From the NCBI GenBank assembly GCA_963844965.1, contig CAWJQC010000007.1, positions 256,001 to 320,000 on the forward strand: a stretch of DNA of 64,000 nt, read 5' to 3'. Origin of the DNA: an uncultured bacterium (GTDB taxonomy: Bacteria > Patescibacteriota > Minisyncoccia > UBA6257 > 2-01-FULL-56-20). Below the pieces are notes generated by a model that saw nothing but the letters and a program-made list of their open reading frames with translations, searched no databases and was not told the DNA's origin. This document shows positions 13,785 through 62,584 of this stretch, piece by piece (the first letter of the stretch is position 1; each line of letters opens with the position of its first letter). The position numbers and the translations under genes are program-made.

Positions 13785-14419
13785 TTATGCCTCCTTTCGC
13801 TTAGCGGTGCATCTTTTCAATTTTCGCAAGACCATCGCTAGTGCGCAATAAGCATTTACATCGGTCTTTTTCGCGAGTTCAAGGAACGCTTCCGCTTCTT
13901 TTATCCAGCGGGGAAATTTAGCGCGATTGGGATTTGATCGCGGTATGAGCGGGGCGCGCCTTATCGTGTCATACTTGTCGGCAATGCCAAGGAGTTTTAT
14001 TCCCCGGCTTCCGTTGCGGACAAAATCATTGAAGAACCGCGCCTTGAGGATTTTCTTCTCGGCTTCGGTTTCGTGGGCTTCTGGCATCCGAGTTACTCCT
14101 TTAACGATATCGTGTGTTTCGGGACGAATAGGTGCTCAATCGTTTCCAGCGCAACGCCGCCGTCTTCCACGACGTCGTGCAGAAGGGCGGCGGCAAGCAG
14201 ATGGTAATCGCGGACACGGAACGTTTCAAAGAGAAAATTGAACACGGCGAGCGGATGGACGAAGTACGGATATGATTCAATTCCGAATTTTTTCTGCCCC
14301 CGATGCGCCGCTTCAGCCATGTTGTATGCCCGCCAGAGCGCCGATTGTTCGGCGCAGGTAAGTTGCCTGGCGTTCTTCATGAATCGGCGCTTTGCGGCTT
14401 TGAGCGATGGGTAACGCAT
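13785..14419 (-). CDS. SpoT/RelA-type HD-domain (p)ppGpp hydrolase-like small protein, split by a 1-nt frameshift near 14090
   Basis: HRGQ...YFVHPLAV...LLHDVVEDGG motifs in ORF 14093..14419; the adjacent ORF 13785..14087 continues the HD fold (KLLGIADKYDT resembles LIKLADRLHNMRT) in another frame. Confidence 0.5.
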
Positions 14420-14440
14420 GCGGCCTCCTTTCTTTGCGGG

Positions 14441-15640
14441 CTAAAACCCGAAGTGATTTAGAAGAATTGCTTTAAGATCCATTTTCCGCAACGATTGCCA
14501 GAAAATCTTATGCGAAAGCTTTTTCTTTCTGCGGATTTTTTCTTCCTCGGTCACTTTGCCGCCCATTGAGTGCGCGAGAGTGCCGTGGCGGTCGCTATAG
14601 GGGAAGATTTTCACCTTGTTGAAGTGGAATTTATCTAAGACTGCGGAGGTCGCAAGAAAGTCCGCTTCGGTTTCGCCCGGAAATCCGACGATGATGTGGG
14701 TGTTGATCTTGAGGCGAGGATTTGCCTCCCGGATGCGCTCAAGAAGAGGGAGCACGCGTTCCATGGCATACGGCCGCTGCATCAGGTTGAGAATCCTTTG
14801 ACTGCCGCTTTCAATGGGAATGGTGATGAAGATAATTTTTGGCGAGGAAAGCGCCGCGAAAAGCCGTTTTTCGTATCTAACAAGCGCGGCTGGATTGAAT
14901 TCGGTGAGCACCAATCTGAAGTCCTGTTTCATCGCGAGGATTTGCTCTAGAAGATCGGCGATGCTCTCGCCGCGGTCTTGGCCGAACATTCCTACGTCAT
15001 CTGCGTTGAGGGAAAAAATACAGTATCCTTCCTCAAGACCGCACAGGAATTCACGCATAATATCCGCTGTTGGCTTTGATACCAGTTTGCCGCGGGCAAG
15101 CCGTTCGGCGCAGTAGGTACAGGTTCCGAGGCATCCTTCTGAAATTTTGAGATGGAAGACTTTTTCCTTGTCGTAGAGATACGTAAAGTAATCGTCGCGC
15201 AGGAACACGCGGTTCAGCAGCCGCATCAATCTTCCGCCGCGAGACCACTCCCTATGCACTTTGTGACCTATCTTGCGTTCGGCACGACTGAGATTGAACA
15301 TATTTATCGCTTCTTCCAGATTTCGGCCGGAGAAAAATCTCCCTTCGGCATTTATCTCGCGCAATCTTTGAGGATTGATGTCGGGCAGACAGCCGAAAAC
15401 GACCACCTCCTGGTTTTTTCGTTTGGCGTTGAGGAGCTTCGTGATCTCGCTGACGGCTTTTTCTTCGGCGCTTTCCATGAACGCGCAGCTGTTGATGAGG
15501 ATGATATCTGCTTCGTTCGCGCTTGGCGCTTCAATCCAGTTGTTCGCGCTGAGCAGTTCTTTCACGTCCTCTCCACAGAGCATCAGTCGGACGCACACAT
15601 TCTCGTTGACCAGGTGAAATTTCCGCGGAAGTTTGCCCAT
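14441..15640 (-). CDS. MiaB/RimO-family radical SAM methylthiotransferase-like protein
   Basis: N-terminal MTTase domain (ILINSCAF), radical SAM CLGTCTYC (Cx3Cx2C); 399 aa. Confidence 0.65.
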   Translation of the reverse strand: MGKLPRKFHLVNENVCVRLMLCGEDVKELLSANNWIEAPSANEADIILINSCAFMESAEEKAVSEITKLLNAKRKNQEVVVFGCLPDINPQRLREINAEGRFFSGRNLEEAINMFNLSRAERKIGHKVHREWSRGGRLMRLLNRVFLRDDYFTYLYDKEKVFHLKISEGCLGTCTYCAERLARGKLVSKPTADIMREFLCGLEEGYCIFSLNADDVGMFGQDRGESIADLLEQILAMKQDFRLVLTEFNPAALVRYEKRLFAALSSPKIIFITIPIESGSQRILNLMQRPYAMERVLPLLERIREANPRLKINTHIIVGFPGETEADFLATSAVLDKFHFNKVKIFPYSDRHGTLAHSMGGKVTEEEKIRRKKKLSHKIFWQSLRKMDLKAILLNHFGF

Positions 15641-15775
15641 TTTTCGTTTCCTTTTATGGTTAAAATTTCAACGGAACCTATAGCTACCTGATTATTAGCA
15701 TAAAGTTGGGTCGTGAGTCAATTTTAAGTTTCGGATAGGCTTTGAAGTTTTCAGGGAACATATCGGTCCCAACAT

Positions 15776-18705: not shown

Positions 18706-19717
18706 CTATAATTTGAAAACCATTCTGGCGAACGTATAAAGAATTGCGGCTATAATGGCAGCCATGGGAATGGTTAAAACCCAGACCCAGATAATTCGCA
18801 GAGTCACGCCCCATTTTACGGCAGAAACGTGCTTGGCCGCGCCGACTCCAGAAATAGCACCGGTTATGACGTGTGTGGTTGAAACCGGCACGCCCAGATA
18901 AGTGGCGAAGAAAATGCTGATGGCGGAAGCCGACTCGGCACAGACACCGTCAATTGGTCGGAGTTTCGTGATTTTTTGGCCCATGGTTTTGACAATGCGC
19001 CAGCCGCCGGAAAGAGTGCCCATTCCAATGGCCGCGTGCGCCATAAGCACGACCCAGAGCGGAATTTTGAAAGTGCTGATAAGCCCGGCAGAAAACAAGA
19101 GGCTCGTGACAATGCCCATGGTTTTTTGTGCGTCGTTGCTGCCGTTACCCAGGCTGTACGCCGCGGCCGAAACAAGTTGCAGGCGCCTTGACCAAATATT
19201 CACCGGTCCCGGCGAAGCTTTAGTTTTATACAAAACCCAGAGAGTAGCGCTGATAAAGATCATGCCCAGGACCATGCCGATGATCGGCGCGAGAAAAATA
19301 AATATGATCGTTTTGTTCCATCCTTGCCAGATGATTACGTTTAGTCCCGCCTTGGCTACGGCCGCGCCGGCGTAACCACCGATCAGCGCGTGTGAGGAAC
19401 TAGTAGGCAACCCCAGCCGCCAAGTGATGATATTCCAGATAATTGCGCCGAGAAGCCCCACTAAAATCACATAAGGAGTTACTACGTTGATGTCTATGAG
19501 ACCCTTGCCGATGGTGGAAGCGACTGTAGTGCCGAAGATAAGGAAGGCAACGAAATTAAAAAATGCCGCCCAAACTACGGCTTGGCGCGGCGAGAGCACG
19601 CGGGTGGATACGATGGTAGCAATGGAGTTGGCCGCGTCGTGCATGCCGTTCGTGAAGTCAAAGATGCACCGCTACCAAAATGATCCCTATGACGAGCAAC
19701 AGGCTATAGCTCAGCAT
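18706..19717 (-). CDS. pit: PiT-family inorganic phosphate transporter with a 1-nt frameshift in its N-terminal region
   Basis: FDFTNGMHDAANSIAT and GANDAQKTMGI signatures. The true N-terminus MLSYSLLLVIGIILVAV (start near 19717) is in a +1 frame relative to the main ORF, which begins at 19644. Confidence 0.7.
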
Positions 19718-19725
19718 TCTTTTGC

Positions 19726-20468: not shown

Positions 20469-22491
20469 ATGAAGAATACTTCCTGGACGGTGGGTGTTTT
20501 GGTGGTTTGTGTTTCTGTAAGTTTGCTTGCGGCGTCAAGCGCTTACGCGGCTACGCCGACGCTTTCGCTCGCGGTGACGAGCGGGGATTCTGTGCAGATA
20601 AACGTGATCGGCGATTCGAATTTTCCGGTCGTGTTTTATTACAATGTCGGCAGTTCTTCCGGAACGAACACAACGACGCTCGGTAGTACGAACTCCAGCG
20701 GCGTTTTTTCAACAACGATAAGCACGGGCGCGTACGCGATAAACTCCAGCTATCCGGTATATGTCGTAGTGGATGGTCAGCAGTCAGCTACACAAACCTG
20801 GCCTTACGGCGCCAGTACTTCCTCGGGTACAAGCGGTACGCCAGTACTCAGCCAGACAAGCGTTACGGTCGGTATCGGGCAGTCAGTGACCGTGACTTCG
20901 CAGGGAGGCAGCGGCATCTATTTGGTGTCCAATTCCAATTCTTCTGTGGCCGCCGCTTACGTATCTGGGACACAGGTTGTTGTTACCGGAAGCCAGCTGG
21001 GTTCAACGACAATGACAATCTGTTATGTGGGTACCGCTTCCAATTGCACGAATTTGTATGTGAATGTGCAGAGCGGAACCGTGCAGGCGCTCACGTTCAG
21101 CCCGAACAACATTTCCTTATCGGTCGGTGGCAGTCAATCTGTGACCATAAGCGGCGGGAGTGGAACGTATAGTTTGTCTTCCAATTCAAACTCCAGCGCC
21201 GTTTCCGTGAATTTATCGGGAAACACGCTTACGGTGACAGCCATCGCGGCCGGGAGCGCCAATATAACGGCATGCGACACGTCGGGAAATTGTAGTGTCT
21301 TATATGTGACGGTGGGCGGAAGCTCAACAAGCGGTTCCTTGTCTTTCAGCCAGACGAATCCGTCTATAGCGGTCGGACAGGTTATAAGCGTGAGTGTTTA
21401 CGGCGGAAGCGGCTATTACGTGTCCGCTAACACGAACTCCGGCATCGCCTCGCAAACGCTGAATGGCAACACACTCTCAATCTCTGGTCTGGCAGCCGGA
21501 GCGACGACGATCACCGTATGTTCGGCGGTGAACGGCTGCGGCTACCTTTATGTCACCGTCGGTTCGTCATCCGGCACGAGCCAGACAATTACTTTTAGCC
21601 AGACGAATCCGTCCATAGCGGTCGGACAGGTTATAAGCGTGAGTGTTTACGGCGGGAGCGGGTATTACGTAACGGGCAACACGAATTCCAGTGTCGCTTC
21701 GCAAGCCCTTAATGGGAGCATACTTTCCATCTCCGGATTGGCAAGTGGCGCCACGACTATCACGGTATGTTCCGTGGCTAATGGCTGTGGTTCGATTTAC
21801 GTCACGGTCGGTTCGTCGTCGGGCTCGAGTATGGCCATCACCTTTGGCACGACCAATCCCACTATTACAACGGGGCAAAGTATGAACATCTCGCTTTCTG
21901 GCGGTTCCGGTTATTTCGTTTCGTCTAATCCAAGTACGAATATTGCGCAGGCAAGCGTTACGGGCAATACGCTTGCGCTCTATGGCGTGGGCGTCGGCTC
22001 CGATTCGCTTACGATTTGCGCGAGTTCCGGCGGCTGCAACACGCTTTACGTCACAGCTGACAAGCGTGACGACCGTTCCGACCACCACGCAGACACAGCA
22101 AACAGTTGTTTCGAGCGCTTGGATAACCGAGATCCAGACAATGCAGACCCAGCTCACAAATATCCTCGCCCAAATCCAAACTTTACAAAGTAACCTTGCA
22201 AATCTTCTTACGCAAGTTACCGCCGGCGCGCAAAGTCCAAGCGTAAGTGGCACGACGACCGCGCAATCCAGCGGCTATAAATTCTACAGCCCGCTCTCGC
22301 TTGGCTCGAGCGGCGCAGACGTCACGGCATTGCAGACCCTCTTGGCCGCGAAGGGATATTACACTGGTTCCATAACCGGTTACTACGGTACGGCGACGAT
22401 GGACGCGGTGATGGAATACCAGACGGCTCATGGTATCACGCCGCTCGGCAACGTGGGTCCCGCCACCCGCGCGGCGCTGAACGCGGAATAA
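20469..22491 (+). CDS. Large secreted Ser/Thr/Gly-rich tandem-repeat surface protein with a C-terminal peptidoglycan-binding domain; frameshift near 22055
   Basis: Signal peptide; at least 5 tandem ~85-aa repeats (SFSQTNPSIAVGQVISVSVYGGSGYYV...CS..NGCG.LYVTVG). The C-terminal PG_binding_1-like region (GADVTALQTLLAAKGYYTGSITGYYG) is in the overlapping ORF 21943..22491. Confidence 0.55.
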
Positions 22492-22597: not shown

Positions 22598-23692
22598 ATG
22601 ATCAAATATTTATCAAGAACAAATCCCAGACTTCTTCAAGGCACGGCGCTCCTGCGGCTTGACTTCAACACGGAAGACGACTGGCGGATGCGGGCGGTTT
22701 TGCTGACAGTCCGCTTTTTATTAAAATACGCCTCAAAGATTATTATCGTAAGCCACAGGGGGCGGCCAAAGGGCCGCGACAAGAAATTCAGCCTGAAAGG
22801 AAGCGGTTTGCGCCTGCAAAAACTTCTGGGCCGCCGGGTTAAGTTCGTGCCGGACTTAAACTTCGCTTATATTAAGAAGGCAGTCGCTGATTCGCCGCAC
22901 GGCTCCATTGTTCTTTTGGAGAATTTGAGATTTTGGAAGGGGGAGGAGGCGAATGATTCGAAGTTCGCGAAACAATTGGCGTTGCTTGCCGATTATTTTG
23001 TGAACGACGCGTTCGCGGTTTCGCATCGGGCGAACGCTTCGGTCGCGGCAATCACGAAATTCCTGCCGAGTTATGCCGGGCTTGAATTGGAAAGGGAGAT
23101 CAAGTTCCTCGGGGGCGTGATGCGCCATCCACGCCATCCGTTTGTTTTTGTCGTAGGCGGGGCGAAAGCAAGCGACAAGCTCGGAGTTATGAAATATTTC
23201 AGAAGCAAGGTCGATTGGTTCCTTGTCGGCGGCGCTGCGGGAAATACGGTTCTCGCCCTTAAAGGAATGGGTATGAAAAAATCTCTTAGGGACAAGGACA
23301 AAAAAGATTTAAAAGGACTACGCGGGATTCTGAGGTATGAGAATGTTATATTGCCTGTGGATTTGAAATGGCATAACGGCGCCGCGCTTGATATCGGTCC
23401 GAGGACAATCGGAGCGTTCACCGGGAAAATCCGCCGCGCGAGAACTATAATTTGGAGCGGTCCGGTCGGCTATTTTGAGAAGCGCGGTTTTGACAAGGGG
23501 AATCTTGCGGTAGCGCGCGCGATAGCGGCGAACCGCAAGGCGTTCAAGCTCACCGGTGGCGGCGAAACGGTGATGTTCCTAAAGAAACACCATTTAGATA
23601 AGAAGTTTAGTTTTATTTCAACCGGCGGGGGAGCAATGCTTGATTTTTTAGCCGGAAAAAAACTTCCTGGGATAGAGGCATTAAGTAAATGA
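22598..23692 (+). CDS. pgk: Phosphoglycerate kinase
   Basis: LRLDFNT, VSHRGRPKG, ENLRFWKGEE and GGGAMLDFLAGKKLPGIEAL match PGK motifs; start chosen at MIKYL. Confidence 0.85.
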   Translation: MIKYLSRTNPRLLQGTALLRLDFNTEDDWRMRAVLLTVRFLLKYASKIIIVSHRGRPKGRDKKFSLKGSGLRLQKLLGRRVKFVPDLNFAYIKKAVADSPHGSIVLLENLRFWKGEEANDSKFAKQLALLADYFVNDAFAVSHRANASVAAITKFLPSYAGLELEREIKFLGGVMRHPRHPFVFVVGGAKASDKLGVMKYFRSKVDWFLVGGAAGNTVLALKGMGMKKSLRDKDKKDLKGLRGILRYENVILPVDLKWHNGAALDIGPRTIGAFTGKIRRARTIIWSGPVGYFEKRGFDKGNLAVARAIAANRKAFKLTGGGETVMFLKKHHLDKKFSFISTGGGAMLDFLAGKKLPGIEALSK

Positions 23693-24316
23693 AAAGTTTA
23701 TATAAAAAAGTGGCATTGGAATTAGCGGAAAAGGCGGGTAAAACTATGCTTGCTTATTTTACATTGGGGATGAAAAAGAATTGGAAAGAAGACAACACCC
23801 CCGTTACCGCAGCCGACATTGAAATTAACAAACTCGTTATCAAAACCATCCGCAAGAATTTTCCTGATCACGACGTGCTTGGCGAAGAGTTGAGCGATAT
23901 GAAAAGAGGAAGCGAGATGGTGTGGGTGTGCGATCCGATTGACGGCACAATCCCGTTTTCTCATGGGATTCCAACGAGCACCTTCTCGCTTGCGCTTGTT
24001 TGGCGCGGGAAGCCGATTATGGGCGTTGTTTATGACCCATTTCTCAAAAGAATGTTTTTTGCAGAGAAAGGCGGAGGCGCATTTCTCTGTAGCAAGAGAA
24101 TATACGTGAATTCGAAAAAAGAATTGCGGAGCTCTCTCGTAGGTATGGAGGTATGGAGGGAGGCACAATTCAATTTATCCCCGCTTCAGATAGCCATGAA
24201 GAACGAGGGCGCAAAAATAATCATTCCTTGCTCGACGGCGTATATGGGAATGCTTGTTGCGTGTGGCGAAGCCTCGGCAAGCATTTTTCCGGGATCTACC
24301 GCGCACGATGGCGCCG
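23689..24316 (+). CDS. Inositol monophosphatase-family protein (SuhB-like), 3' end disrupted by an IS3-family insertion
   Basis: WVCDPIDGT motif; the reading frame runs into the IS left end at about 24317 and continues as non-homologous read-through to 24423. Confidence 0.6.
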
Positions 24317-24376
24317 TGAAAAGGACCCTTTTCTTTAGACAGTCATTCGACGATTTTTTCGCCGATTTTTTTCACT

Positions 24377-25162
24377 TTACCACGCCGCTAACTGCTCGGC
24401 AAACACGACTGGCGGCATCTTGAGGGCGGAGTGGATCCGCGTGTGGTTGTACTGCCACAAGGTGCTGTAGATCTCCGCCACGAGCTCGCCGAAGGTCCCG
24501 AACCGGTTGGGATCACCGAGGTCAATCTTGAACTTGTCATAGAACGATTCCTGGTAGCCGTTTTCCCATGGGGCACCGGGCCGCGACCGCGAGATCGTGA
24601 TGCCACAGTCCCCCAGTGTATCGGTGAACGCTCGTGCCTTGTACTCGCTGCCGTTGTCCGAATGGAAGATGACCGGATGCGGATGGTGGAAAAGCGCGTT
24701 GGCCAGGGTCTGTATCGTGAGGGGCGATCCTTTCCGCAACGCCACATGGACGCCCATCAATCGTCTCGTGAAAAGATCGAGTATCGTGGACACGTACACT
24801 TTCTTGCCGCGATACAGGAACTCCGTGAAATCGGTTGCCCAGACGTGGTTCGCGTACGAGGGCATGATGGCAAGTAAGAGGTTCGGAAAGGCCCGCGATG
24901 CCTTTGATTTCCGGTATTTCCTGCCTCGCCTCCGGTACGGCCTTATGCCGAAGATTCGCATGACGCGCTGCGCTCGCGGACGGCTCACGCCCAGAGCTTG
25001 TCCCAAGCGCCGGGAACCGTATGCCGGATGGCGCTGCAATTCTTCTTCCATGCGGATCTTGAGCGCCCAATCTTTCTTGTCCTGCCGTGATACGTAGTAG
25101 AGCGATGCCCGCGAGACGCCCATGGCCCGCGCCATGGCGGACTTGTTCCGCTTTTCCGTCAA
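24377..25162 (-). CDS. IS3-family transposase OrfB (rve integrase catalytic domain)
   Basis: DDE region HSDNGSEY...PWENGYQESFYDKFK typical of rve integrase core. Confidence 0.8.
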   Translation of the reverse strand: MTEKRNKSAMARAMGVSRASLYYVSRQDKKDWALKIRMEEELQRHPAYGSRRLGQALGVSRPRAQRVMRIFGIRPYRRRGRKYRKSKASRAFPNLLLAIMPSYANHVWATDFTEFLYRGKKVYVSTILDLFTRRLMGVHVALRKGSPLTIQTLANALFHHPHPVIFHSDNGSEYKARAFTDTLGDCGITISRSRPGAPWENGYQESFYDKFKIDLGDPNRFGTFGELVAEIYSTLWQYNHTRIHSALKMPPVVFAEQLAAW

Positions 25163-25422
25163 TTCTTTTTTTGGGCCTGGGAGAGCTTCACGGTGAGCTC
25201 GCCCACCACTTCAAACAGCTCCCTGTTCTGCTTCTGGAGACGGCTGAACTCGCCCCAGGAAGGGACGCCCGATGCTCCTGCGCCTAGCCAATTGTAGATG
25301 GTGGACTCGTGCAAACCGTGGTCCTTCGCAGCCTGCGCTACGGGGACTCCTTCTTCCTTCACCCGGCGGAGGATGTCCGCCTTCACTTCCTTCGCAATCC
25401 GATGCCCTTTTTTGTTGCTCAT
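25159..25422 (-). CDS. IS3-family transposase OrfA (HTH)
   Basis: 87 aa, HTH region, leucine-zipper-like C-terminus; the AAAAAAG slippery heptamer lies at the orfA/orfB overlap. Confidence 0.75.
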   Translation of the reverse strand: MSNKKGHRIAKEVKADILRRVKEEGVPVAQAAKDHGLHESTIYNWLGAGASGVPSWGEFSRLQKQNRELFEVVGELTVKLSQAQKKN

Positions 25423-25436
25423 GACACAATGGTAGT

Positions 25437-44228: not shown

Positions 44229-44359
44229 CATTCAGCTTTCGTTATCGAGGAGACGCGGTTGCGTCCATTTGTGCTACATTTTCCAAAGATGTTGGCAAGT
44301 AAATTAGAAGAGAGTAGGCTATATTGCGGATAGTAAAATAGCTGTTTCGATACAAAAGC

Positions 44360-50964: not shown

Positions 50965-53830
50965 ATGGAGTACGTCATCCTCGATATCGAAACTACTGGC
51001 CTAGATAAGGAACATTCTTCTATTATCGAGATAGCTGCTATCCTCGTAGAAAAAGGAGGTGTCAAAAATAGTTATAGCTCTTTTGTTCATTATGATGGCG
51101 TTCTCTCGGAAACCGTAAAGCGGCTAACTGGCATCCAAGAAGAAGATACTCAAAAAAGCTCCACTAATAGCTGCTGTCATTTCTGAGTTGAAAAATTTTA
51201 TTCAGAAGCGACCCGTTGTTGCTCATAATGGATATTCCTTCGATTTCTTTTTTCTTGAACGGGAGGGGCTGAAACTGGAAGAAAAATATGACTCTATGGA
51301 ATTTGCCTTTTTTGTCATGCCCACGAACGCTCCTGGCCATTCGATCCCTGCGCTCGCGGAACAATTTAAGTTAGGCGAAGCTCCGCATCGGGCGCTCGGG
51401 GATTGCAAGCTCGAACTCACAATAATCAATCGTCTTCAAAAGGAATATGGAAAGAGAAAGAAATCAAAACGAGAAGTTCTTGCTCATGCCGCAGGAACGA
51501 CAGGATGGTGGTGGTCCAATTTCCTCTCGGGAGAGAAAGCTCCTACTGATCGAATTTCAAGCCTCATTGAGGCTTATGAGCCATACCGCAAAGAATATCG
51601 CGGGGCAGAAATGCTGGGATTTCAAACAGAAGTGATCGATATTGCAGAGGTTGAAAAATATTTTCAACCAGCGGTAAAAGCGGGCGAGAAAAACGGAGAG
51701 GATGATTACTCGGAAGATCGACCCGAACAACGAGAGATGGCGAAAATGGTAGCCACGGCGTTTAACAAGCATAAGCATGCGGTCATAGAAGCCGGTACAG
51801 GCACCGGAAAATCAAAAGCATATCTCGTGCCGTCGCTCCTTTTTGGACTCAAGAACCGCATACCGATGATCATATCGACCCATACCAAAGCACTCCAAGA
51901 TCAGTTATCCCTCAAAGAAATACCGCACATAAAGAATCTCATTCGGCCCGATCTGCGCGTTGCTGTTCTCAAGGGAAAACAAAATTACGTCTGCTTGGCA
52001 AAATTCGAGATTTTTGCCGAAGAAACTGTGAAGGAGCTTTCGCAACGATCCTTGTATGAGTTTGGTGAATCGGAAACTCGGTATTCAACACGCCTCGCTT
52101 ATTTATTGCTCTTCTCGTGGATTCTTGAAGCTGAGTATGGCGATTGGGACGAGCTGCCATACTGGATCAAAGAGCGGATTCCCAAATATATACAAGCCGA
52201 AATCTGCAATATCGATGAGCTTTGCGGCAATGGGACTTGCGACATCTATGACGCAGAAAAATGTTTCCTTGCTAAGGCCAGGCTTCGCGCACGTGATGCC
52301 GATCTTGTGATTGTAAATCACGCGCTTGCTCTTATGGGCATCATTATTGAGGATAAGACTCCCGAAATACCCAGTGAGCCAGGCGTCGATGTGCCTCCGA
52401 GTAAAATGTATAGTCATACGGTCTTTCCTAACGAGTCGAAATTCATCGTATTCGACGAGGCCCAACATCTTGAGGACGACGCAACTTCGGCATGGGAGCA
52501 TGTGCTCTCCCAGAGTTTCCTACAACTAATTCTCCAGCAACTTTATGGTAAGCGAGGCGTCCAGCAGCTTGTAAAATCTATCGCCAGCAAAAAAACTGAT
52601 GAACGACTCACGCGGCTTGCAGCAAATTTTGAGAGTGGCGAAGGCAACATAAAAATCGGCGTCGAGGCGCTTTTTAAAAATATCTTACCGCACCTCGTTT
52701 CCGAAAGTGATACACGGGAAACTTATACTATGCTCGATGAAATTCCCGATACCTCTCCGGAGCGGAAAGCGCTATTCTCTGAGCTACGGAGCTTGCGGCA
52801 ACGATTTCTTGATATTGCAAGAATATTAAGTGAATTTTCGGAAGAAACCGAAGTTCCAAGGATGCGCAAAACCCTTTCCGTCCGCTACAACACTCTTCAA
52901 CGGATCGTGCGCTCATTCGATGCCATTCTAGAAAACGATAACGTATATGTGAGATACCTCCAGCGATTCGGTTCAAGCGTTGAAATTAAAGCTGCTCCAC
53001 TCTCGGTCGGTCCATACCTGAAAGATTATGTCTACGATAATTTTGCTTCGGTAGTTATGACCTCGGCGACACTCACTGTCGGCAAACGGTTCAATTTCTT
53101 CGCGAGCCGCTGTGGGACATTATTAGTCGACAAAGAAAAGATTGGGTACAGACTTTTCCATTCCTCCTTCAACTACGAGAAGCAAGTTAAATTTTTTGTT
53201 CCGAAAGGAATTAACTATAAAGAAGATCGCGAAACCCATCTTGCGAAAAGCACTGAGTTTCTTAAAAAAGCGATTGTCGCCTCCGGCGGAGGCGCGCTCG
53301 TGCTTTGCTCAAGCCACGATCAGGTCGGAGAACTTTACCAAGGGCTCTCAAAGACACTTTCTGAAAACAATATTTGGCTTCTCCGGCAGCAGAAAGGCAT
53401 ATCAGTAAGCTCCGTCATCAGAGATTTTAGAAGGGACGTCGATTCGGTGCTTATTGGCACCGAGACCCTCTGGCAGGGCATCGATGTTCCCGGGGAATCG
53501 CTCCGCAGCCTTTTTATTTATAAGATTCCATATCGAATGCCTGGCCTTCCTCTCATCAAAGCCCGCCGGAAAGAGATTGAAGATAACGAGCGGGATAGCT
53601 TTGCCGAATATTATGAACCGCTTGCCGCTCTAATTCTCAAGCAGGGATTCGGGCGGTTGATCCGCAAATCCACTGACATCGGTATCGCCGTACTTCTCGA
53701 TGAAAACTTTCTTAAAAAGCCGAGCCTTATGAACTCCCTTCCGGAAGGCGTCCACCCTCAAGCTGCCGAGCCGGAAGCTATTTGCGAAGAACTTCATAAA
53801 TTACACTTGTTGCGACTGAAGGAGAGTTAG
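50965..53830 (+). CDS. dinG: DinG-family ATP-dependent helicase with an N-terminal DnaQ-like 3'-5' exonuclease domain; frameshift at about 51150
   Basis: Exo I ILDIETTGL, Exo II VAHNGYSFDFFFL, Exo III HRALGDCK; helicase Walker A AGTGTGKS and DEAH-like VFDEAQHL; the N-terminal 73-aa ORF and the 880-aa ORF join across an A6 run. Confidence 0.75.
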
Positions 53831-53862
53831 CCACAAGCCAGAAAATCAGCTATGCTTTTTCA

Positions 53863-54333
53863 ATGGACGCAACATTCGTAAAAGACCTCATCAAGGGGAA
53901 GATTGCCGAAATTATATTCGAGCAGATGTTTCGTGAGTCCGGCGAGTATACAATTCTCCATTCTGGCTATGAATATACCCTGCCCGAACTCGCGCAGTAT
54001 CAACATCTCACCGAGATAAAAGCAGTGATTGAGAACATAAGGAATGCGCCAGATTTCGTTTTAATTTCGCAAGATAAAAAACGGGTTTATCTCGTGGAGG
54101 TGAAATATCGGCGCAACCGCAATCCGCGCGAGCTAAAAAAAATTTGTGAAAATACCCTTCAGATCTGGAATCCTTCGTGGCTTTTTGTAGCATCTCCTGA
54201 TGGATTTTTCTTTGAGCCCTGCAACGATGTGGTCAACAAAAATGATGGGCAGATTGGACCCCTCTACGATAAGTGGGTAAAAAACGATGTTCAATCGGAA
54301 TATCTGAAACTCCTGAATCAGTTTGAGCTTTAA
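53863..54333 (+). CDS. Small PD-(D/E)XK nuclease-fold protein
   Basis: E..PDFVL...YLVEVKYR pattern (E, PD, ExK); 156 aa. Confidence 0.4.
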   Translation: MDATFVKDLIKGKIAEIIFEQMFRESGEYTILHSGYEYTLPELAQYQHLTEIKAVIENIRNAPDFVLISQDKKRVYLVEVKYRRNRNPRELKKICENTLQIWNPSWLFVASPDGFFFEPCNDVVNKNDGQIGPLYDKWVKNDVQSEYLKLLNQFEL

Positions 54334-54340
54334 ATTGAGA

Positions 54341-55841
54341 TTAACCAATCTCTTTTTCCAAGTTCTCCAATATGCGTACCATCGCCATCGTGTCGAGGCC
54401 ACAATAGAGCAGCATGTCCCGCTTGAGTTTTTCCTTTTCAGCTAGTGGCGTCTTGGAATCCGTAAGCCGCGGCCAGCTGACAGACGCCGTGCTCCCTTCC
54501 TGAATGGCGAGATTCTGATACGAAAGTTCGGGCACGAGGACCGGGAGAATCGCCTTGATGGACGCGCTCCCATGGAAACCTTGCATCCACGAACATCTTT
54601 TTCTTAAATATAAGCATCAGGTCGTAGACGCGGTTGTTCACCGCCTCCATGAAATCGGCATATTCTGGATATTGCTCTCCGATCTCCTTATTCCTTGGCA
54701 CTTCGAATGGAGCGAACCATACGATGACAGTTCCTTTCGTGCCGATATCCGTTTTGAGTTGCGCCACCATCTCCGGAATGGGATTTGCGTCCTTCACCGC
54801 CAAAAACTCCTTTTGCTCCGCCTCGGCCTTGGGCGTTTTCTTAATGTGAAGTGAGTATTGAAAAACTATCTTCTGCCACGGACGCGTGCCGTCATAGGGT
54901 GGTATGGGTGAGGCAAACGTTTCATAATCCAAAAAGTAGATTGGGTAAACGAGCGCCGCGAGTTCCTTTTTTATCATCGCGGCATCCATCGTTTTTTCCA
55001 CTGGCGTATACCCAAGGCCACGCAGAAATACCGCAGAGAGCGAATTCGCGTCAAGAGTTCCTTTTTTCAACAAGCTGAGGGTGAAGGCTGGTGGCCAGTT
55101 CTTGACATCCAATTTTTTTGCCGGGGCCTTGGAGAGGTAAAATTCCAAGTGGTCGCACGAACCAGTCTTCGACTTGCACGAAAGGATAACGCGATTGTCC
55201 GGGAAGTCCTCGATGGCGAGGAGGGCGAGGGAATCTGCTATGCTTGTTTTAATCTCAGGCACAAGATCACGCGCCTCATCAGTCACATCCTCAGTTATAA
55301 AAAACTTCTTGGGCTCTACGTTCCCTTTCCGTACATATTCATTGTTTACATGAATAATGAAAGTTTTCCCCACTTTGATGCCAGCTTCTTCAAAACAAAT
55401 GAGCTGGAACGCAACATCGCGTAAGTCCTCCGGCCGAACCTTTGTTGCACTCTTCACCTCGCGGATATCGTAAGCATCCGCCGTTTGATCATAGGTCACA
55501 ATATCTGCGCGGCAGGTCAATCCGGTCTTTGTGACGACGGTCGGCTGGAAAATAACTTTTTGTTTTTCGTCAAAGAGTGTTTTGCTTTTGCGCCAACCTT
55601 CCTCGTTAAAATCAAAAAGTTCTATGCCATCCTTATAGAGCTGCTTTGCGAGTATATCCACCTTTTCACCTTCCTGTTGATGGAAGATCTCTGATGCCGA
55701 GGGAAGCGGCATAAGATGTTTGCCTTTTCTCGCCATCCAAAGGTAACAACCGCATTCGAGAAAGTTCTTGTAGTCGGTCTTCGTGAACAGTTTAGCCATA
55801 GTTAGTTCTTCATTTCTATCACGTTGAGCAGCTTTTCGCAA
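54341..55841 (-). CDS. DUF2779-family protein (Cas4/RecB-like nuclease N-terminus plus DUF2779 C-terminus); frameshift near 54600 in an A-run
   Basis: N-terminus LFTKTDYKNFLECGCYLWM; YFLDYETFASPIPPY; C-terminal piece GSASIKAILPVLVPELSY lies in ORF 54341..54586 in another frame. Confidence 0.55.
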
Positions 55842-56095: not shown

Positions 56096-57007
56096 ATGGC
56101 CTTATTCTCCATCTCAAACGGCAGCACGAAGAAAATATCATCCGTGAAAATCGGGCTTGAAAAAGACGTCCAAAAACTCTTCGAGAAAAACCTTGAGGAG
56201 ATTTTGAATATCACATTCCTAGCATCAGAGTATTCAACGAGCTTCGGCGGACGAATCGATACGCTGGGTATGGATCATAACGGAGCGCCAGTGATCATTG
56301 AATATAAGCGGTCGCAAAATGATAGCGTCATCAACCAAGGCCTGTCATACCTCCGATGGCTTCTTGATCACAAAGCGGATTTTGAAGCGCTGGCGCACCG
56401 ATTAAAAATTGAGATTGAAATTGATTGGGCTTCTCCGCGCGTTATCTGCGTGGCCGAGAGTTACAATAAATTTGACCTCGATACCGCCGATCTTCTGCCG
56501 ATGAACATAGAACTGTTACGCTACAAGATTTATGAACAAAACATTCTTCTCGTTGAACCAGAAGTGCAACGCAAAATAAAAATATCCACGTCGGAAGTAT
56601 TCGAGAAAACAACGCGGGAGAGGCACGAGTTTAAAGAACAGATCAAACACACCATCGAAGATCATTTGAAATCAGCAAATCCCGCCATCCGCGATCTTTT
56701 TGCCGCCATGAAAGAGAAAGTTCTTGCGCTTGACGAATCAATCAGCGAGGAGCCGAAAGCGCATTACATTGCCTACAAACTGGTGAATAATTTTGTGGAT
56801 GTTGCGGTGCAAAAGGACGCCTTAAAAATTTTCCTCAACATCACGAGCGGCGCGTTAAATGATCCGACATCTCTGGCCCGCGACCTTACTAAGCCGAAAC
56901 CCGTTGGCCACTGGGGTAACGGCGACTACGAACTCAAGCTTGATCAACGGGAAAATCTCAATGCTGTGATGGCGCTCATCAAGCAAAGTTACGAATACAA
57001 CAAGTAA
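56096..57007 (+). CDS. NucS/RecB-like PD-(D/E)XK nuclease-fold protein with a C-terminal DUF5655-like domain
   Basis: GRIDTLGMDHNGAPVIIEYKR...QGLSYLRWL pattern; 303 aa. Confidence 0.45.
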   Translation: MALFSISNGSTKKISSVKIGLEKDVQKLFEKNLEEILNITFLASEYSTSFGGRIDTLGMDHNGAPVIIEYKRSQNDSVINQGLSYLRWLLDHKADFEALAHRLKIEIEIDWASPRVICVAESYNKFDLDTADLLPMNIELLRYKIYEQNILLVEPEVQRKIKISTSEVFEKTTRERHEFKEQIKHTIEDHLKSANPAIRDLFAAMKEKVLALDESISEEPKAHYIAYKLVNNFVDVAVQKDALKIFLNITSGALNDPTSLARDLTKPKPVGHWGNGDYELKLDQRENLNAVMALIKQSYEYNK

Positions 57008-57134
57008 AGCCCTTGTTCAGAAATACTGAAAATCCCCGCTGTAAACCAGAGGAGGTTTTCGGTTTCTTTTTCCATCCGCCCTAAAATAGCGCGGCGATTT
57101 TTCGTGTTCAAAAATAAACTAATTTATCATCACT

Positions 57135-59063
57135 ATGGCAAAACGAGGAAGACCGCCGAAAAATCAATTGACGGTCGCGCAACCAAAAACCGAATGTGCT
57201 CCGGACATGAGTAGTCTCAATAAGATGCCGAAGTATTGTTTGTACGCGAGGAAGTCATCGGAGAGCGAAGAACGGCAGGCACTCTCCATCGACTCACAGG
57301 TCAAGGAGATGTATAAGATCGCGGAGCGCGATCATCTCTCGGTCGTTGAAGTACTGACCGAATCACACTCTGCAAAAAGCACCGGATGCCGACCGATCTT
57401 TAACCAGATGGTTATAGGTGTTAAGGATGGCCGCTTTGAGGGCATTCTTACCTGGGCACCGGATCGTCTGAGTCGCAACGCAGGCGACTTGGGCCAGCTG
57501 GTCGATCTTATGGACAACGGCCATCTTGCGGAAATCCGCACGTTCGGGCAGATATTCAAAAATTCGCCCAACGAAAAATTCTTGCTTATGATTCTCTGCT
57601 CACAGGCGAAACTCGAAAATGATAACAAGAGCGAGAACGTGAAGCGAGGTCTCCGTGCTGCCGCCGAGCGAGGATATCGCCCAGGCGTCGCACTTGTGGG
57701 ATACACGAACAGTTATCGCAGGGATCATCCCGGCGAAGTGGTAATTGATAAACTGCGAGCCCCAATCATAAAGCTTATGTTTGAGAAAGCCGCAAATGGA
57801 TGGTCAGCGCGGAAGTTGGTGGTCTGGCTTCGCGGTATCAACTTTACGACGCGCAACGGAACATATCTCTATCTAAGCAGTGTTCATACGCTGTTGCAGA
57901 ACCACTTTTACTACGGCACGTTCGAATACCCTCGGGGCAGCGGCGCATGGCACAAAGGAAATCATAAACCGCTCATTACCAAGGATATGTTCGACCGTGT
58001 TCAAGCGCAGATTGAACGACGGCGCACCTCGCGCCGCTCGGAGCGGAAATCTTTTGGATTCACCCAGCTCATGCATTGCGGCATCTGTGGCTCCGGCGTT
58101 TCCGCCGAAGAAAAATTTAAGAAACTGGTAGACGGTTCACAGGCCCGCTATGTCTACTACGGATGCAATCGTTCCAAGGGGGTGAAGTGTACCAATACTT
58201 ACATCCGTGAGGATTTTCTGGTCCGGCAGTTTGTGAACATCATCGACGAGATATCGCTCGACGAGCTTGGCATACGAAAACTTCTCGGCGAGGAAACTGA
58301 GCGTGTCTTTCGGTTTCACAATGATGTCATGGGCGATCCTAACGCTTCGGAAACTCAAGAGAAAAAAGATATCGACATTAAAACCTACGCTAAATATCTA
58401 CTCGCAAGAGGCAACGCCGAAGAAAAAAGATTACTACTATGCAACATTCAGAACCGACTGATCCTTCGGGATAAAGCCGTATATCTGGAAGAAGTAGGCG
58501 GTCTTACCTGGAAGGACTATATTGGCCATATGAGAAAGTGCGCGAACTGCGGATCAAAAAACGTGAACGAGAGCGGACCGTATGCGAACTGGAAATTCGG
58601 CGATACGCCAATCGACGACACGCCGCGGATCGTGTATTTCGCTTGTCTCGACTGTGAGCAATCGTGGAAGCAGGTCAACGAGAATATCTTGCGATTAATG
58701 CGCGAGTATGTGGTGGTGCCAGAGGGAAACGGGGCGTGGATTAAAACACCTGGCGGCTCGGAGTTTTTCGCGACGCCGTCTTTCGCCGCGCGGTTCAGAG
58801 ACACGGTGGAGATAGACGGCAAAAAAGTGCCACCGAAAAAAATTCTCGGGGAAATGCTGTACTGGCCAGACAGGAACGCTTACGAGACGACGATCGAATA
58901 TGACGACGGAAGCGAACGGACATTTGATATCCCAAGTCTTCGTGGCAGGAACAATACAGAAGAAGGCATGAAGCCGATCAGCAATAAGGATGGTCTTATG
59001 GAGTACAAAGAAGGTAAGATGCAAACTTATTTCGGTCGCGGTCTCCAATATGACGGCCGATAA
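57135..59063 (+). CDS. Large serine recombinase (phage-type serine integrase)
   Basis: Resolvase catalytic domain (LYARKSSESEERQALSIDSQ), recombinase domain, Cys-rich zinc ribbon (CGICG...CNRSKGVKC) and a coiled-coil C-terminal region; 642 aa. Confidence 0.85.
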   Translation: MAKRGRPPKNQLTVAQPKTECAPDMSSLNKMPKYCLYARKSSESEERQALSIDSQVKEMYKIAERDHLSVVEVLTESHSAKSTGCRPIFNQMVIGVKDGRFEGILTWAPDRLSRNAGDLGQLVDLMDNGHLAEIRTFGQIFKNSPNEKFLLMILCSQAKLENDNKSENVKRGLRAAAERGYRPGVALVGYTNSYRRDHPGEVVIDKLRAPIIKLMFEKAANGWSARKLVVWLRGINFTTRNGTYLYLSSVHTLLQNHFYYGTFEYPRGSGAWHKGNHKPLITKDMFDRVQAQIERRRTSRRSERKSFGFTQLMHCGICGSGVSAEEKFKKLVDGSQARYVYYGCNRSKGVKCTNTYIREDFLVRQFVNIIDEISLDELGIRKLLGEETERVFRFHNDVMGDPNASETQEKKDIDIKTYAKYLLARGNAEEKRLLLCNIQNRLILRDKAVYLEEVGGLTWKDYIGHMRKCANCGSKNVNESGPYANWKFGDTPIDDTPRIVYFACLDCEQSWKQVNENILRLMREYVVVPEGNGAWIKTPGGSEFFATPSFAARFRDTVEIDGKKVPPKKILGEMLYWPDRNAYETTIEYDDGSERTFDIPSLRGRNNTEEGMKPISNKDGLMEYKEGKMQTYFGRGLQYDGR

Positions 59064-60845
59064 GCGTTGCCAGATGGCAAAATAACATCGCCGCTTCCGG
59101 AGGAATTGCTTGGAGTAGGGCTTGGCGGTGCACTTGCCGATGGAGATCCGTCGCTGGTCTCGGATGGTCCATTTCGCGGAGATGGTCCCAACGCCGCAGG
59201 CCGATGAGTACTGTCTGCGGAATTGTCGCCAGTGTTCGGCGGCGGTGGCGTAGAACGCGGAGCAAGACCCCATACTTGTAAATTGCCGAGGAGATCGGGG
59301 AGATTAACGCTGTAGCTGTCCGTGGGCAATGGCTCGGTATTTCTGCTGCGGCCCATGATCTCCACCTTGCCCGTATCCAGGTTAAGCCGCCCAATCACTG
59401 GCAACTGGCCATTCTCTCCAATCACGCTGTTCGCCATGAGGGTAAATGCGTCACAGAGGTCATCGAACCGCTCTATGCCAAATCCAATGAGCTGTTGCTT
59501 CAGGTGTGAATTCTCCGGGTCCGGCGCGAAGAGTATTGTGCCATTCTGAATAAGAGCGCTTGCGGTCATAAGCCGGGCGTGTTTGTCGGTGGCGATCTTT
59601 ACGCCGATCACCCTGCAATGTTTGGATTTTTCGAGGTACTCGATGGCCGACCGTTGATAGGCCACATCCTCGATCCGTATCTCGACCGCGCCGCAAAGCT
59701 TCGTGTACATATCATGGAGTTCCTTGAGGAGCTCCATCGTTTCAAGGAACGCCATCCTGCGGTTAATCGTCTTGATGACATACCCGTGGAAGTCCTTGCC
59801 GAATCCGGCGAAGAGGCCTACGACGATGCCCGTGTAATCAGCGGTTTCTTTTTCCGAGATCGCGAGGTCGACCCCGATGACCACCTTTTTGATTTTCTCT
59901 TTCGGCAATACTACCCAGTGCTTGATCCATTCCGCTTGGATCACGCGCTCGTCGCTCGTGACCGTTTGGAGTAAAAATTCCCTGCGCCACGTAGTGTCGT
60001 CACCGATCTTCCGTTTGAACGCCTCAAGTGCCTCGGGCGTCTTGAACTTCTCTGGCCACTGGCATACGCCTTCATCGTCAACGAGCGGATACCGCCGAAA
60101 GACACCACCACGCTCGCCTTTTTTGATTTGCTCGATAACGCGGCCGAGCAGGGAAAATTCGTGCAAGAAATTCCCGATGAGAAAGATCTTTGTCTTTGTC
60201 GTGCCCAACGGAATTATTTCCGATACGAACCAGCTATAGATGCGATCGCGGTTTTCTTTTGTCCGCGTCCCTTGCAGATCTTGCGGATCGTCTACGATCA
60301 CATAGTCCGGGCGGTATTGCTTGTAGCGCAGACCGCGCACTGCCTGTTGGGACGAGATCGCAATTATTTTTGCATCGAATTTCCTGAGGGTCATGCCGAA
60401 CGCGCCGCTCTCGTCGCCCTCCATATCGATCGGTCCGAAATCATTTCTGAGGAGGGGCGATTCAAGCGCCTTGCGGATGTTGGAGAAATGCGTCCGCACC
60501 TGATGGAGCGTATCGGACGCGATCACGATAAAGTGGGCGCGACCGCTGAGGATCAGACCACAGAGAGAATGACGTATTGAGAATCGCGCTCTTCCCGGAA
60601 TTTCTGAATCCGGCGATCACATAGAGATCATTGTCGTTCGACTCGGTAAGGCGAAACATATCTCGGTGAAAGTCCGCCATCGGGTCTTGGAGGTAGTCCG
60701 CAAGATAGATGTTAAAAAACATCGCGTGCGACCACTGGCCAAGCTTGCGCCGCAGGAGGCGGCTCTTGCGGATGATGTCGATGAAGAAATTGAACTTATC
60801 GGCATTGTTACTGTTGTCACTACTAGGAATTGGTAGGTTGTCCAT
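59027..60845 (-). CDS. Phage terminase large subunit (ATPase plus nuclease); frameshift near 60500
   Basis: N-terminal ORF 60462..60845 has Walker A GFRNSGKS; ORF 59027..60526 has Walker B PDYVIVDDPQD and nuclease GVDLAISEKETADYTGIVV. Confidence 0.65.
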
Positions 60846-61221
60846 TTTTGTTTTGATTAAAGAGGTTTATATAATCTGCGGGGAACCCTGCGAGGCGGAG
60901 GGCTTCGCGGAGGAGTTCGACCTCCTCATCGGTCAGCTCTTCGCGCAGATTGACGGTTCCCGAAAGCTCAAGCCTGCTGCGATACTCATCCTTGTTATTC
61001 TTGAGCCAGAAGATCGCCGCTTGCAGCTTGCCTTGCTTGATCGCCGTAATGACCTGACTTTCCGCAACATCCGAAATGAGGCCTTTGCCGTCGATCATCG
61101 CTTGGTCCACCGCTTTTGCGAAGGCAGGGTCGTCCTGTTTGTATCGGTAGAACGTTGTCCTGCCAACGCCCGCCTTCGCTGCGGCTACTTCCACGAATCG
61201 GCGTTTTCTTGAGCGACTCAA
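60823..61221 (-). CDS. Phage terminase small subunit-like HTH protein
   Basis: 132 aa, HTH (GVGRTTFYRYK), located immediately upstream of terL. Confidence 0.5.
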   Translation of the reverse strand: MSRSRKRRFVEVAAAKAGVGRTTFYRYKQDDPAFAKAVDQAMIDGKGLISDVAESQVITAIKQGKLQAAIFWLKNNKDEYRSRLELSGTVNLREELTDEEVELLREALRLAGFPADYINLFNQNKNGQPTNS

Positions 61222-61251
61222 GAATAACGTTTTTCTTTTCTTCTTGTGTCA

Positions 61252-62584
61252 TTAGATCTTTTGAGGCTTGATGCCTGTTATGCGCTCGACTCTTTTTAGG
61301 ATCACGGTGAGGTACACCGGAGATTTCTCCATCAGATAACAGCGGCGTTGCATTTTTAATGCAGCAGCCCATGTGGATCCGCTGCCCCCGAATGGCTCAA
61401 GGACGAGGTCGTTGCGCCTCGTAAGCACCTTGATATAGGGAACCAGGATCTCCACGGGCTTCGTGCCGAAAATGACGCCCTGCCCGGAATTCTTTTCGTC
61501 CGAGGCGACATGCTCGATGAAGTCCGTAGGGCAAAACTTTTTTCCTTTTTCGTAGGACTCCCATTGCGGTTTCCCCGAGGTGGCAAACAACGCGTTTTCG
61601 TACTCGTTCTGGAGCAGCTCATCGCCCTCGTCGTCAAGGTTCAGCACCACTTCACCGCCGGTTCCCACAAGCGCGATGTCGTGCTTGTTGAAGAATTTGT
61701 ATTTCGCTGCAAAACCGGAGACACGATTCGGAAGATGCCACGTGATCGTGTTCCGATATTTCCAATGTTGTTCTAGGGCGTTCCATATAGTCCGTAGATT
61801 CTTCGGATTTTCGAACACAATGATGGAGAAGTCTGGCTTTTGCACCTTGGCTACATTCGCCATCCAGAGATCCGTAAAATTCTCCGGCAGTGATTCCGTC
61901 TCGAGATACCTGCGATCGCGCTTCAAACCGAACCCCTCCGTCGCTTTGCCGTTGCGCTTCTTGCCGTGGAGGTAATCCAAAAGGTAAGGGGGGTCGGTGA
62001 AACAGAGATTCGCCCGCTCGCCGTTCATGAGTTTCATGATGTCGGCCTCTACTGTGCTGTCCCCACACATCGCCCGGCTGCCGTTCAGCTCGAACACGTC
62101 GCCCTTTTGAATCTCTATCTTGTCGATCTGGAGCTTCTGCAACTCCTTCGCGAGGTCAAATTCTTCTGGCGTTTCATCGAGCGCGAAGATTTTATCCAAC
62201 TCTTCGCTTGAGAACCCAATATCTTTCAAGATGGATTCATCGAACTCTGCGAGGGCCGCGATATCAAATTCGCCCGTGTTTTTGTTCAGCCGAATTATGA
62301 TCTCGGCCTCCTTCTCTGGATCAGGAACGTTGATACGAACGACAGGCACCGTCTCTACACCCATCTCGATCAGTACCTTTGCGCGGAAGTTACCGCCGAG
62401 GATCACGCCTTCGCGGCCCGGCGCACTGTTAATGACTAATGGATCGATTATGCCGTGGCGCTCGAGACTCGCGCAGTTGAGTGTTTGCCTCCTTGGTCCA
62501 TAGGCGAGGGTTCCTTTCGGGATGGCGTAGCGAAGCGAGAGGAACGTAATCGATCTTCAACTTTTCTTGTATGTCTTGGTCCAT
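61252..62584 (-). CDS. ParB-like nuclease domain fused to a DNA methyltransferase (phage-type); frameshift near 62470
   Basis: ParB N-terminus KIDYVPLASL...GIIDPLVINSAPGREGVILGGNFRAKV spans two frames; MTase motif IV CFTDPPYLL and motif I EPFGGSGST. Confidence 0.65.

Follow-up and report, generated by a model that had tools for sequence, protein, structure and literature searches.

Host-restricted bacteria that accumulate pseudogenes, such as Sodalis and Mycobacterium leprae, are known for genome decay in which frameshifts occur together with nonsense mutations, deletions and relaxed conservation, while essential genes are spared. Assemblies generated exclusively from long reads (Nanopore, PacBio CLR) are likewise known for conserved genes split by single-base indels, which is the truncated-protein problem addressed as 'IDEEL', and indels were reported to remain in Nanopore-only assemblies below approximately 40-fold coverage and to produce frameshift errors when genes are called (PMC9262707). 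The window considered here, i.e., the whole stretch of 64,000 nucleotides that was analysed, resembles the pseudogene accumulators in its many frameshifted genes and in belonging to a small-genome, host-dependent lineage; unlike in Sodalis and Mycobacterium leprae, however, its listed genes carry one indel each and no nonsense codon, remain conserved downstream of the break and are represented by intact alleles in read-derived contigs. With long-read-only assemblies it shares the splitting of conserved genes by single-base indels, the repair of these genes by one base, the lack of nonsense codons, the recovery of intact alleles from reads and also the frequency of the lesions, which amounts to approximately 1 per 5-6 kb (roughly Q37). 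Different from textbook Nanopore errors, i.e., deletions in long homopolymers, the lesions are mostly insertions, many of them outside homopolymers, and in contrast to what the classic long-homopolymer deletion bias produces, runs of 7-9 bases look correct. The profile is thereby closer in appearance to low-depth consensus noise than to the classic homopolymer problem. At a probability of about 0.9, the broken genes of this stretch, the cell-wall genes included, are considered to reflect single-base mistakes that a noisy long-read assembly retained, instead of real gene loss; the phenomenon is ordinary and almost certainly an artefact with no real biological feature behind it. Single-base insertions and deletions would have persisted as consensus errors in a contig whose underlying reads were prone to indels and were most likely long and of modest depth, whereby the real genes of the organism would be intact and the errors would reside in the consensus only. 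As each such error shifts the frame, the gene caller outputs two fragments.

Ten genes of the window had been listed as frame-split by a sequence-only reading, and Pfam searches with the fragments, tblastn and one-base repair located a split at or near the proposed place in every one of them. A single-base edit per gene sufficed to yield an uninterrupted full-length ORF without any further stop (10/10), and the Pfam domains run unbroken over the junctions once repaired. Eight of the ten lesions read as one-base insertions, those of the HD and purD-like genes as deletions. Each listed gene carries one lesion, no conserved gene contains a nonsense codon, and the positions of the breaks, at 4% to 84% of gene length, are evenly distributed. 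Several lesions reside in non-repetitive sequence, and in the genes checked no frame break is apparent at any of the 31 homopolymers of at least 7 bases. The earlier estimate of one break per 5-7 kb in core genes agrees with the count of 10 in about 57 kb outside of the tRNA-Glu-linked island described below.

The gene ftsI, encoding a PBP2-type transpeptidase (41087-42722, plus strand), possesses an extra base at 41921 (GGT[C]TCT), just ahead of its active-site motif SVFK and thus directly before the SxxK site, where the break had been proposed to lie. Its fragments match positions 1-43 (fragment 41087-41959) and 51-286 (fragment 41943-42722) of the Pfam Transpeptidase profile, while the repaired protein matches positions 1-286 in one stretch with 221.6 bits and comprises 544 aa, as do its closest relatives P0001 and P0002. 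Past the break, FtsI is 85-87% identical to these two intact relatives, which are 86% identical to each other. In murF (42767-44054, plus strand; 428 aa when repaired) the extra base was located at 43784 (ATT[C]GGC) within the LGDMLE/DIGK motif, which was checked by a motif census in relatives. Here, Mur_ligase_C ends at profile position 50 of 127 in the fragment and covers positions 2-127 after repair, the best murF references change frame at 43783/43784 in tblastn, and the MurF tail is 79-85% identical to relatives. For ftsI and murF combined, tblastn with the relatives' reference ORFs returned 112 adjacent pairs of HSPs that pass from frame 2 to frame 3 between about 41980 and 43850. Judged from these alignments, FtsI and MurF show neither relaxed conservation nor any decay signature past the break, and genuine decay of the two genes, which had been put forward as the alternative, is not borne out, as their downstream conservation equals that between intact relatives. 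Searches with the repaired FtsI identified no close sibling among GTDB species representatives (best 64% aa identity) or JGI metagenome contigs (best 70% aa identity), and the large protein database that was queried offered 79% identity at best.

Both deletions conform to the one-base homopolymer changes suggested before. The SpoT-like HD_4 gene (13785-14419, minus strand) lacks a base at 14124 (coding TTCG[G]TCCC; gg to g); its fragment matches HD_4 over positions 1-63 only, while the HD_4 match of the repaired protein (211 aa) exceeds the cutoff. The purD-like ATP-grasp gene (GARS_A and GARS_C; 37719-39037, plus strand) is one T short at 38588 (GGT[T]ACC; tt to t), which places its two domains in different frames according to Pfam searches on the fragments. 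Reinsertion of the T yields a 439-aa ORF, intact relatives are about 77% identical across the junction, and in L161 the gene is a single 454-aa gene. In the dinG-like exonuclease-helicase gene (50965-53830, plus strand; 954 aa when repaired), the extra A lies in the run 51152-51157 (A6, inferred to be A5), and RNase_T, matched over positions 1-66 only by the N-terminal piece, becomes contiguous over 1-160 upon repair. A location beside an A-run had been claimed for dinG and for the DUF2779 gene (54341-55799, minus strand); the DUF2779 lesion, however, is an extra base at 54575-54577 (coding TTT, true TT) approximately 25 nt downstream of the A-run and outside of it. Repair of the latter gene (485 aa) extends its domain from positions 1-120 to positions 1-126 of 126.

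The gene of the PHO4/pit phosphate transporter (18706-19717, minus strand) has an extra base at about 19668-19669; a three-frame reading placed the first 16 codons, i.e., the first transmembrane helix, in the other frame, and the repaired protein (336 aa) matches PHO4 from 1 to 350 of 350. For the secreted Ig-like-repeat surface protein (20469-22491, plus strand; 673 aa when repaired), Pfam located the repeats in one frame and the C-terminal PG_binding_1 domain, devoid of a start codon, in the next, with an extra base within 22050-22068, the least certain of the refined positions. The terminase large subunit-like gene terL (59027-60845, minus strand; 605 aa when repaired) carries an extra base within 60550-60566, just past the Walker A motif GFRNSGKS. 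Distant viral terminases align through the junction of the repaired protein in one segment (query residues 42-453), and a scan of viral contigs with it returned only relatives of 22-26% identity. Finally, the ParB-N6/N4 DNA methyltransferase fusion gene (61252-62584, minus strand; 443 aa when repaired) harbours an extra base within 62457-62473, and its ParB_N match extends from positions 32-87 before to 4-87 after repair.

The list of ten is incomplete, as the tRNA-Glu-linked island (44.2-51 kb) adds at least 14 frame switches. Eight of these belong to an RloC-like 'wobble nucleotide-excising tRNase' gene (AAA_13; 44360-46627, plus strand) that contains no in-frame stop; they were located at 44546, 44617, 45923, about 46197, 46450, 46515, 46532 and 46567, and frameshift-aware alignment to homologues of 760 aa recovered 750 of the 760 residues at 70% identity. 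The island serine recombinase (47000-48026, minus strand) is split near 47700, by one frame switch or more, into a piece with the Resolvase domain and a piece with the Recombinase domain and Zn-ribbon (Pfam). The MmeI-family type IIL restriction-modification gene (48143-50943, plus strand) possesses 5-7 switches. Alignment to six homologues (910-964 aa) with frameshifts allowed placed them at 48489, 48730, 48831, 49658 and 49884 and, in addition, at 48863 and 48906, the latter two being replaceable by a single stop at 48903; the Pfam matches of the gene come in pieces (MmeI_N 12-120 and 118-180, Mtase 1-150 and 221-257, TRD, C). With approximately one break per 350 nt, the island is more than 10 times as densely broken as the rest of the window and, as a consequence, one uniform error rate cannot account for it, which leaves genuine decay of the island some probability; the stitched island proteins are still well conserved.

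A comparison with sibling data, as had been proposed, was carried out with Logan contigs, i.e., independent read-derived k-mer assemblies, which cover two of the ten listed sites (HD and DUF2779). For both sites intact alleles had been predicted before the comparison, and at both the intact allele was found. At 14124, where the window reads G, contig L169 (SRR18214601, 1439 nt, 99.86% identical) reads GG, and its 156-aa ORF equals the repaired HD tail with 0 differences; at 54576, the coding TTT of the window corresponds to TT in contig L170 (ERR10755942, 1528 nt), the 113-aa ORF of which equals the repaired DUF2779 tail, again with 0 differences. Two homopolymer-length indels, and no substitution, separate L170 from the window over the entire length of the contig. 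Altogether, 10.5 kb of sequence in six Logan contigs (99.75-99.94% identical) revealed 7 one-base indels as compared to 6 substitutions. Six of these indels locate to assigned genes, where two break the window copy and four break the Logan copy of a gene intact in the window (surface protein, 20809; pgk, 23101; dinG, 53511; recombinase, 58934); the seventh (L164, 27965) resides in a stretch without an assignable gene. As contigs from ERR10755942 break genes that are intact in the window, this read set is indel-noisy, and the approximately 1:1 ratio of indels to substitutions, together with the fact that all coding indels are frame-breaking, identifies noise and not natural polymorphism. The earlier proposal of uncorrected indel errors is thus upheld by the intact alleles at two sites and by the noisy read set, except that long homopolymers are not the main location of the errors. 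ERR10755942 is probably a long-read run; a literature search for the run accessions found no paper naming it. The sites of pit, terL and the surface protein lie 30-700 nt beyond the ends of contigs L163, L165 and L171. A k141-named ENA contig (L173) was discarded as comparator, being 94% identical over 53578-54321 only and continuing into an unrelated gene. A chimeric query of the ten junction peptides retrieved no protein of about 100% identity at any junction; as the partial ORFs of L169 and L170 were not among its results either, this negative is given no weight. The same cause presumably applies to the remaining eight listed sites and probably also to the denser breaks of the tRNA-Glu island, there perhaps by way of a lower local read depth.

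That the population recently gained real frameshifts in many genes, ftsI and murF included, as part of a decaying symbiont genome is considered very unlikely. The idea draws on the presence of the indels in the deposited sequence and of the gene fragments as separate proteins in public protein collections, on Patescibacteria being reduced, host-dependent organisms, and on the island genes, where lesions are as numerous per gene as would be expected of old pseudogenes; moreover, the read-derived check reached only the HD and DUF2779 sites. At these two sites, however, otherwise identical read-derived assemblies contain intact alleles, so the lesion is fixed at neither. A mixture of lesion types (nonsense, deletions, several per gene) was looked for in the listed genes, and exactly one lesion each, no nonsense codon and retained downstream conservation were found, while real decay does not predict that Logan contigs break pgk and other genes where the window is intact. 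Even in the island genes, 13-15 frame switches go along with only 0-1 in-frame stops, and an alignment identity of 70% is maintained. A narrower version, according to which some lesions among the sites without Logan coverage, either those of the island or those of ftsI and murF, are real and fixed in the population, is likewise given little credence. If true, it would mean in the case of ftsI and murF that functions in peptidoglycan synthesis and division were lost recently, and in the other case that an RloC-like tRNase/MmeI-type restriction island is actively eroding.

Strain heterogeneity, meaning that frameshifted and intact alleles coexist and the assembler picked the broken ones, could build on L169, which derives from a different run, also carries one substitution and may represent a different strain, and on the possibility that both alleles coexist in ERR10755942. 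Natural strain variation consists mostly of substitutions, though, and indels that break the frame of pgk, dinG and ftsI would be eliminated from it, whereas L170 shows homopolymer-length indels without any substitution and, over the 10.5 kb compared, indels are as common as substitutions, each assignable one being frame-breaking; this explanation is therefore held to be highly improbable. Functional frameshifts by recoding, i.e., programmed ribosomal frameshifting or transcriptional slippage, do have a genuine case in the window, namely the IS3-family insertion sequence (24380-25473, minus strand), in which orfA (HTH_Tnp_1) and orfB (rve), as assigned by Pfam, overlap at A AAA AAG (CCCAAAAAAAGAATTGA). 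With overlapping orfs and slippery heptamer it matches the programmed -1 frameshift of its family, which none of the ten listed sites does, and it is the sole normal programmed -1 frameshift among the frame changes of the window. The dinG lesion lies within an A6 run, which might be taken in favour of slippage. Slippage rescue in insect endosymbionts, however, requires homopolymers of 9 or more bases, and no run of at least 9 bases occurs at any site, this A6 being the longest. The ten sites shift in both the +1 and -1 directions and have no motif in common, be it for methylation or slippage, apart from TCTC-like strings at three of them (ftsI, terL, ParB-MTase); a slippery heptamer is absent at ftsI (GGTCTCTG), murF (ATTCGGC) and ParB-MTase (GAGTCTCGAG), and relatives encode every tested gene in a single frame. 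Recoding is accordingly regarded as next to negligible. A variant genetic code was dismissed, since the breaks are frame changes and not reassigned stop codons.

The reading of the breaks as consensus errors amounts to a data-quality warning: approximately one frame-breaking indel per 5-6 kb is present in this stretch, and far more in one island, a warning which probably extends to the entire 331.7-kb source record. Breaks in both ftsI and murF would be biologically remarkable if true, but the evidence points the opposite way. Without polishing or frame correction, gene calls, completeness estimates and pseudogene counts derived from this contig would be wrong, and so would be any 'lost' peptidoglycan or repair functions of the organism inferred from it.

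When the open reading frames (ORFs) on either side of ten positions, at which the sequence-only reading had placed single-base frameshifts in conserved genes, were scanned with Pfam, adjacent ORFs in different frames proved to share one domain or architecture, with half located in each. In ftsI, Transpeptidase is distributed over separate ORFs (1-43 and 51-286), in murF Mur_ligase_C is cut at 50/127 and in the purD-like gene GARS_A and GARS_C differ in frame, while the HD gene retains only 1-63 of HD_4, dinG only 1-66 of RNase_T, the DUF2779 gene 1-120 of 126 and the ParB-MTase gene only 32-87 of ParB_N. The ftsI and murF breaks were confirmed by reference ORFs from 160 related loci, with the frame change of the best murF references falling at 43783/43784, and the LGDMLEIGKY motif, unbroken in relatives, is split in the window. 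Base-by-base reading of the three frames served to propose one single-base edit per gene, and each of the ten genes thereby becomes an uninterrupted ORF: HD (211 aa), pit (336 aa), surface protein (673 aa), purD-like (439 aa), ftsI (544 aa, precisely as long as in the two nearest relatives), murF (428 aa), dinG (954 aa), DUF2779 (485 aa), terL (605 aa) and ParB-MTase (443 aa). Pfam matches on the repaired proteins span the junctions without a gap, with Transpeptidase 1-286 as a single stretch (221.6 bits) in FtsI, Mur_ligase_C 2-127 in MurF, RNase_T 1-160 in dinG, DUF2779 1-126, ParB_N 4-87 and PHO4 1-350 in pit, and HD_4 of the HD protein now exceeds the cutoff. As the lesions were read, one base is missing in HD and in the purD-like gene, and one is surplus in each of the other eight; homopolymers of at least two bases are touched by only about half of them, and the breaks lie between 4% and 84% of gene length. 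Domain halves and one-base repairs hence bear out the ten sites, with slightly refined coordinates; the list was incomplete in so far as an island behind tRNA-Glu holds more. In the stretches 1-13 kb and 25.9-37 kb, no frame break was found in genes with Pfam matches.

Cluster look-ups identified near-identical short Logan contigs, assembled from public sequencing runs, of which six (10.5 kb in total) were fetched and found to be 99.75-99.94% identical to the window. Two of these cross listed sites. L169 (SRR18214601), aligned to 14254-12817, shows a single mismatch and a single gap, the latter at 14124 in the HD gene (TTCGGTCCC versus TTCG-TCCC in the window), and L170 (ERR10755942), aligned to 53156-54683, is free of mismatches and has two gaps, among them one at 54576 in DUF2779 (GG-AACC versus GGAAACC in the window). 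Both repairs had been made before these contigs were seen, and the partial ORFs of the contigs match the repaired protein tails at every residue; the comparison with sibling data suggested by the sequence-only reading thus returned the intact allele at both covered sites. The ERR10755942 contigs carry one-base indels of their own, which break the Logan copy where the window is intact, namely in pgk (23101), the dinG C-terminus (53511, T6 versus T5), the large serine recombinase (58934) and the surface protein (20809). In total, window and Logan contigs differ by seven indels and six substitutions, and all indels in assigned genes put either the window or the Logan copy out of frame. Natural variation consists mainly of substitutions, and indels that disrupt the frame are eliminated from housekeeping genes, hence the approximately 1:1 ratio points to indel-prone reads. 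At 27965, just downstream of the DUF2914 gene and without a family-assignable ORF, the Logan contig L164 is one G longer (GAGGCC versus GAG-CC). An ENA contig with a short-read-assembler-style name (ERZ27248934 k141_951592) matches 53578-54321 without gaps at 94% identity, covering the dinG 3' end and the next 156-aa gene; beyond, an unrelated 254-aa ORF replaces DUF2779, which marks it as a relative with a different neighbourhood here.

Considering the intact L169 and L170 alleles and the indel noise of the ERR10755942 contigs, the frameshifts are present in the sequence, yet with a probability of about 0.9 they stem from an assembly noisy in indels and not from biology, as the earlier preference for uncorrected indel errors had it. 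The residual errors are not of the classic long-homopolymer type, as several of the 31 homopolymers of 7-9 bases lie within in-frame genes, including A8 at 37755 (purD-like) and A8 at 54135, where the frame is kept. They rather look like low-depth consensus noise; Nanopore-only assemblies with less than approximately 40-fold coverage are documented to retain indels that lead to frameshifted gene calls (PMC9262707).

Genuine pseudogenes are possible at the eight sites without Logan coverage, but nothing supports such a reading there, and decay is opposed by the finding of a single lesion and no nonsense codon in each listed gene. Moreover, downstream of the break FtsI shares 85-87% identity with the two nearest relatives, which are themselves intact and 86% identical to each other in this part, and the MurF tail reaches 79-85% identity to relatives, so real frameshifts in ftsI and murF, the alternative earlier called remarkable, are improbable. 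Strain heterogeneity is an unlikely source of the differing alleles, since two homopolymer-length indels are all that separates L170 from the window. The sites share no motif, shift in both directions and lack a slippery heptamer or long homopolymer, and the relatives are all single-frame; on these grounds both programmed frameshifting and transcriptional slippage were rejected. The frame change between the overlapping orfA (HTH_Tnp_1) and orfB (rve) of an IS3-family element (24380-25473), with slippery A AAA AAG at ~25166, is natural. Within 23689-25473 this element abuts an inositol-monophosphatase-family gene matching only profile positions 6-214 of 271; its remainder was not found beyond the IS, and judged from this arrangement the gene looks cut short by the insertion.

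Directly after tRNA-Glu(CTC) (44157-44229), a defence-type island (44157-50943) holds three repeatedly broken genes: an RloC-like 'wobble nucleotide-excising tRNase' (AAA_13; homologues 760 aa) with eight frame switches from 44546 to 46567, a serine recombinase split at ~47700 according to Pfam (at least one switch) and an MmeI-family type IIL restriction-modification gene with 5-7 switches. Stitched together, the RloC-like protein aligns over 750 of 760 residues at 70% identity without in-frame stops. Altogether, 13-15 frame switches stand against 0-1 in-frame stops at normal homologue similarity, a pattern that fits an indel-only process better than neutral decay, although genuine decay of the island is possible. 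A uniform error rate does not account for the break density (~1 per 350 nt versus ~1 per 5.7 kb elsewhere in the window); local read depth may be lower, for example if only part of the population carries the island.

The window (G+C ~50%) comprises a division and cell-wall cluster (mraZ, rsmH, ftsL-like, ftsI, murF), ribosomal protein genes, tRNA-Val (37478-37550) and several mobile elements. A prophage-like or integrated-element stretch (56096-63998) encodes DUF5655, a large serine recombinase (642 aa), the terminase large subunit, a ParB-N6/N4 methyltransferase fusion and RusA; the repaired terminase has a proline/serine-rich C-terminal tail (~130 aa) that runs into the 3' end of the convergently oriented recombinase gene, which leaves the C-terminus of the terminase provisional. 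An intact 532-aa N6_N4 DNA methylase fused to an Mrr-like restriction endonuclease domain (33907-35505) lies between an ornithine carbamoyltransferase gene and rplJ, which adjoin directly in a relative of 79% identity (L161). The ornithine/aspartate carbamoyltransferase (32563-33606) carries ~28 additional residues (SSPRHPERSEGSPCSPAEFAEG...) between its two Pfam domains, a candidate insertion. An intact 797-aa VirD4/TraG-like coupling-protein ATPase (7895-10288; TrwB_AAD_bind, TraG-D_C), whose Logan cluster member has 783 aa, adjoins a PMT_2 glycosyltransferase and GH18 gene. The closest FtsI relatives all derive from Patescibacteria/Parcubacteria metagenome-assembled genomes, with best identities of 64% (GTDB species representatives), 70% (JGI metagenome contigs) and 79% (large protein collection), and the scanned collections contained no sibling genome. 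Exact look-ups found the window proteins, gene fragments included, already deposited from a single NCBI/ENA contig of 331,718 bp, a record that has to be polished or corrected for frame before functional inferences are drawn from it.
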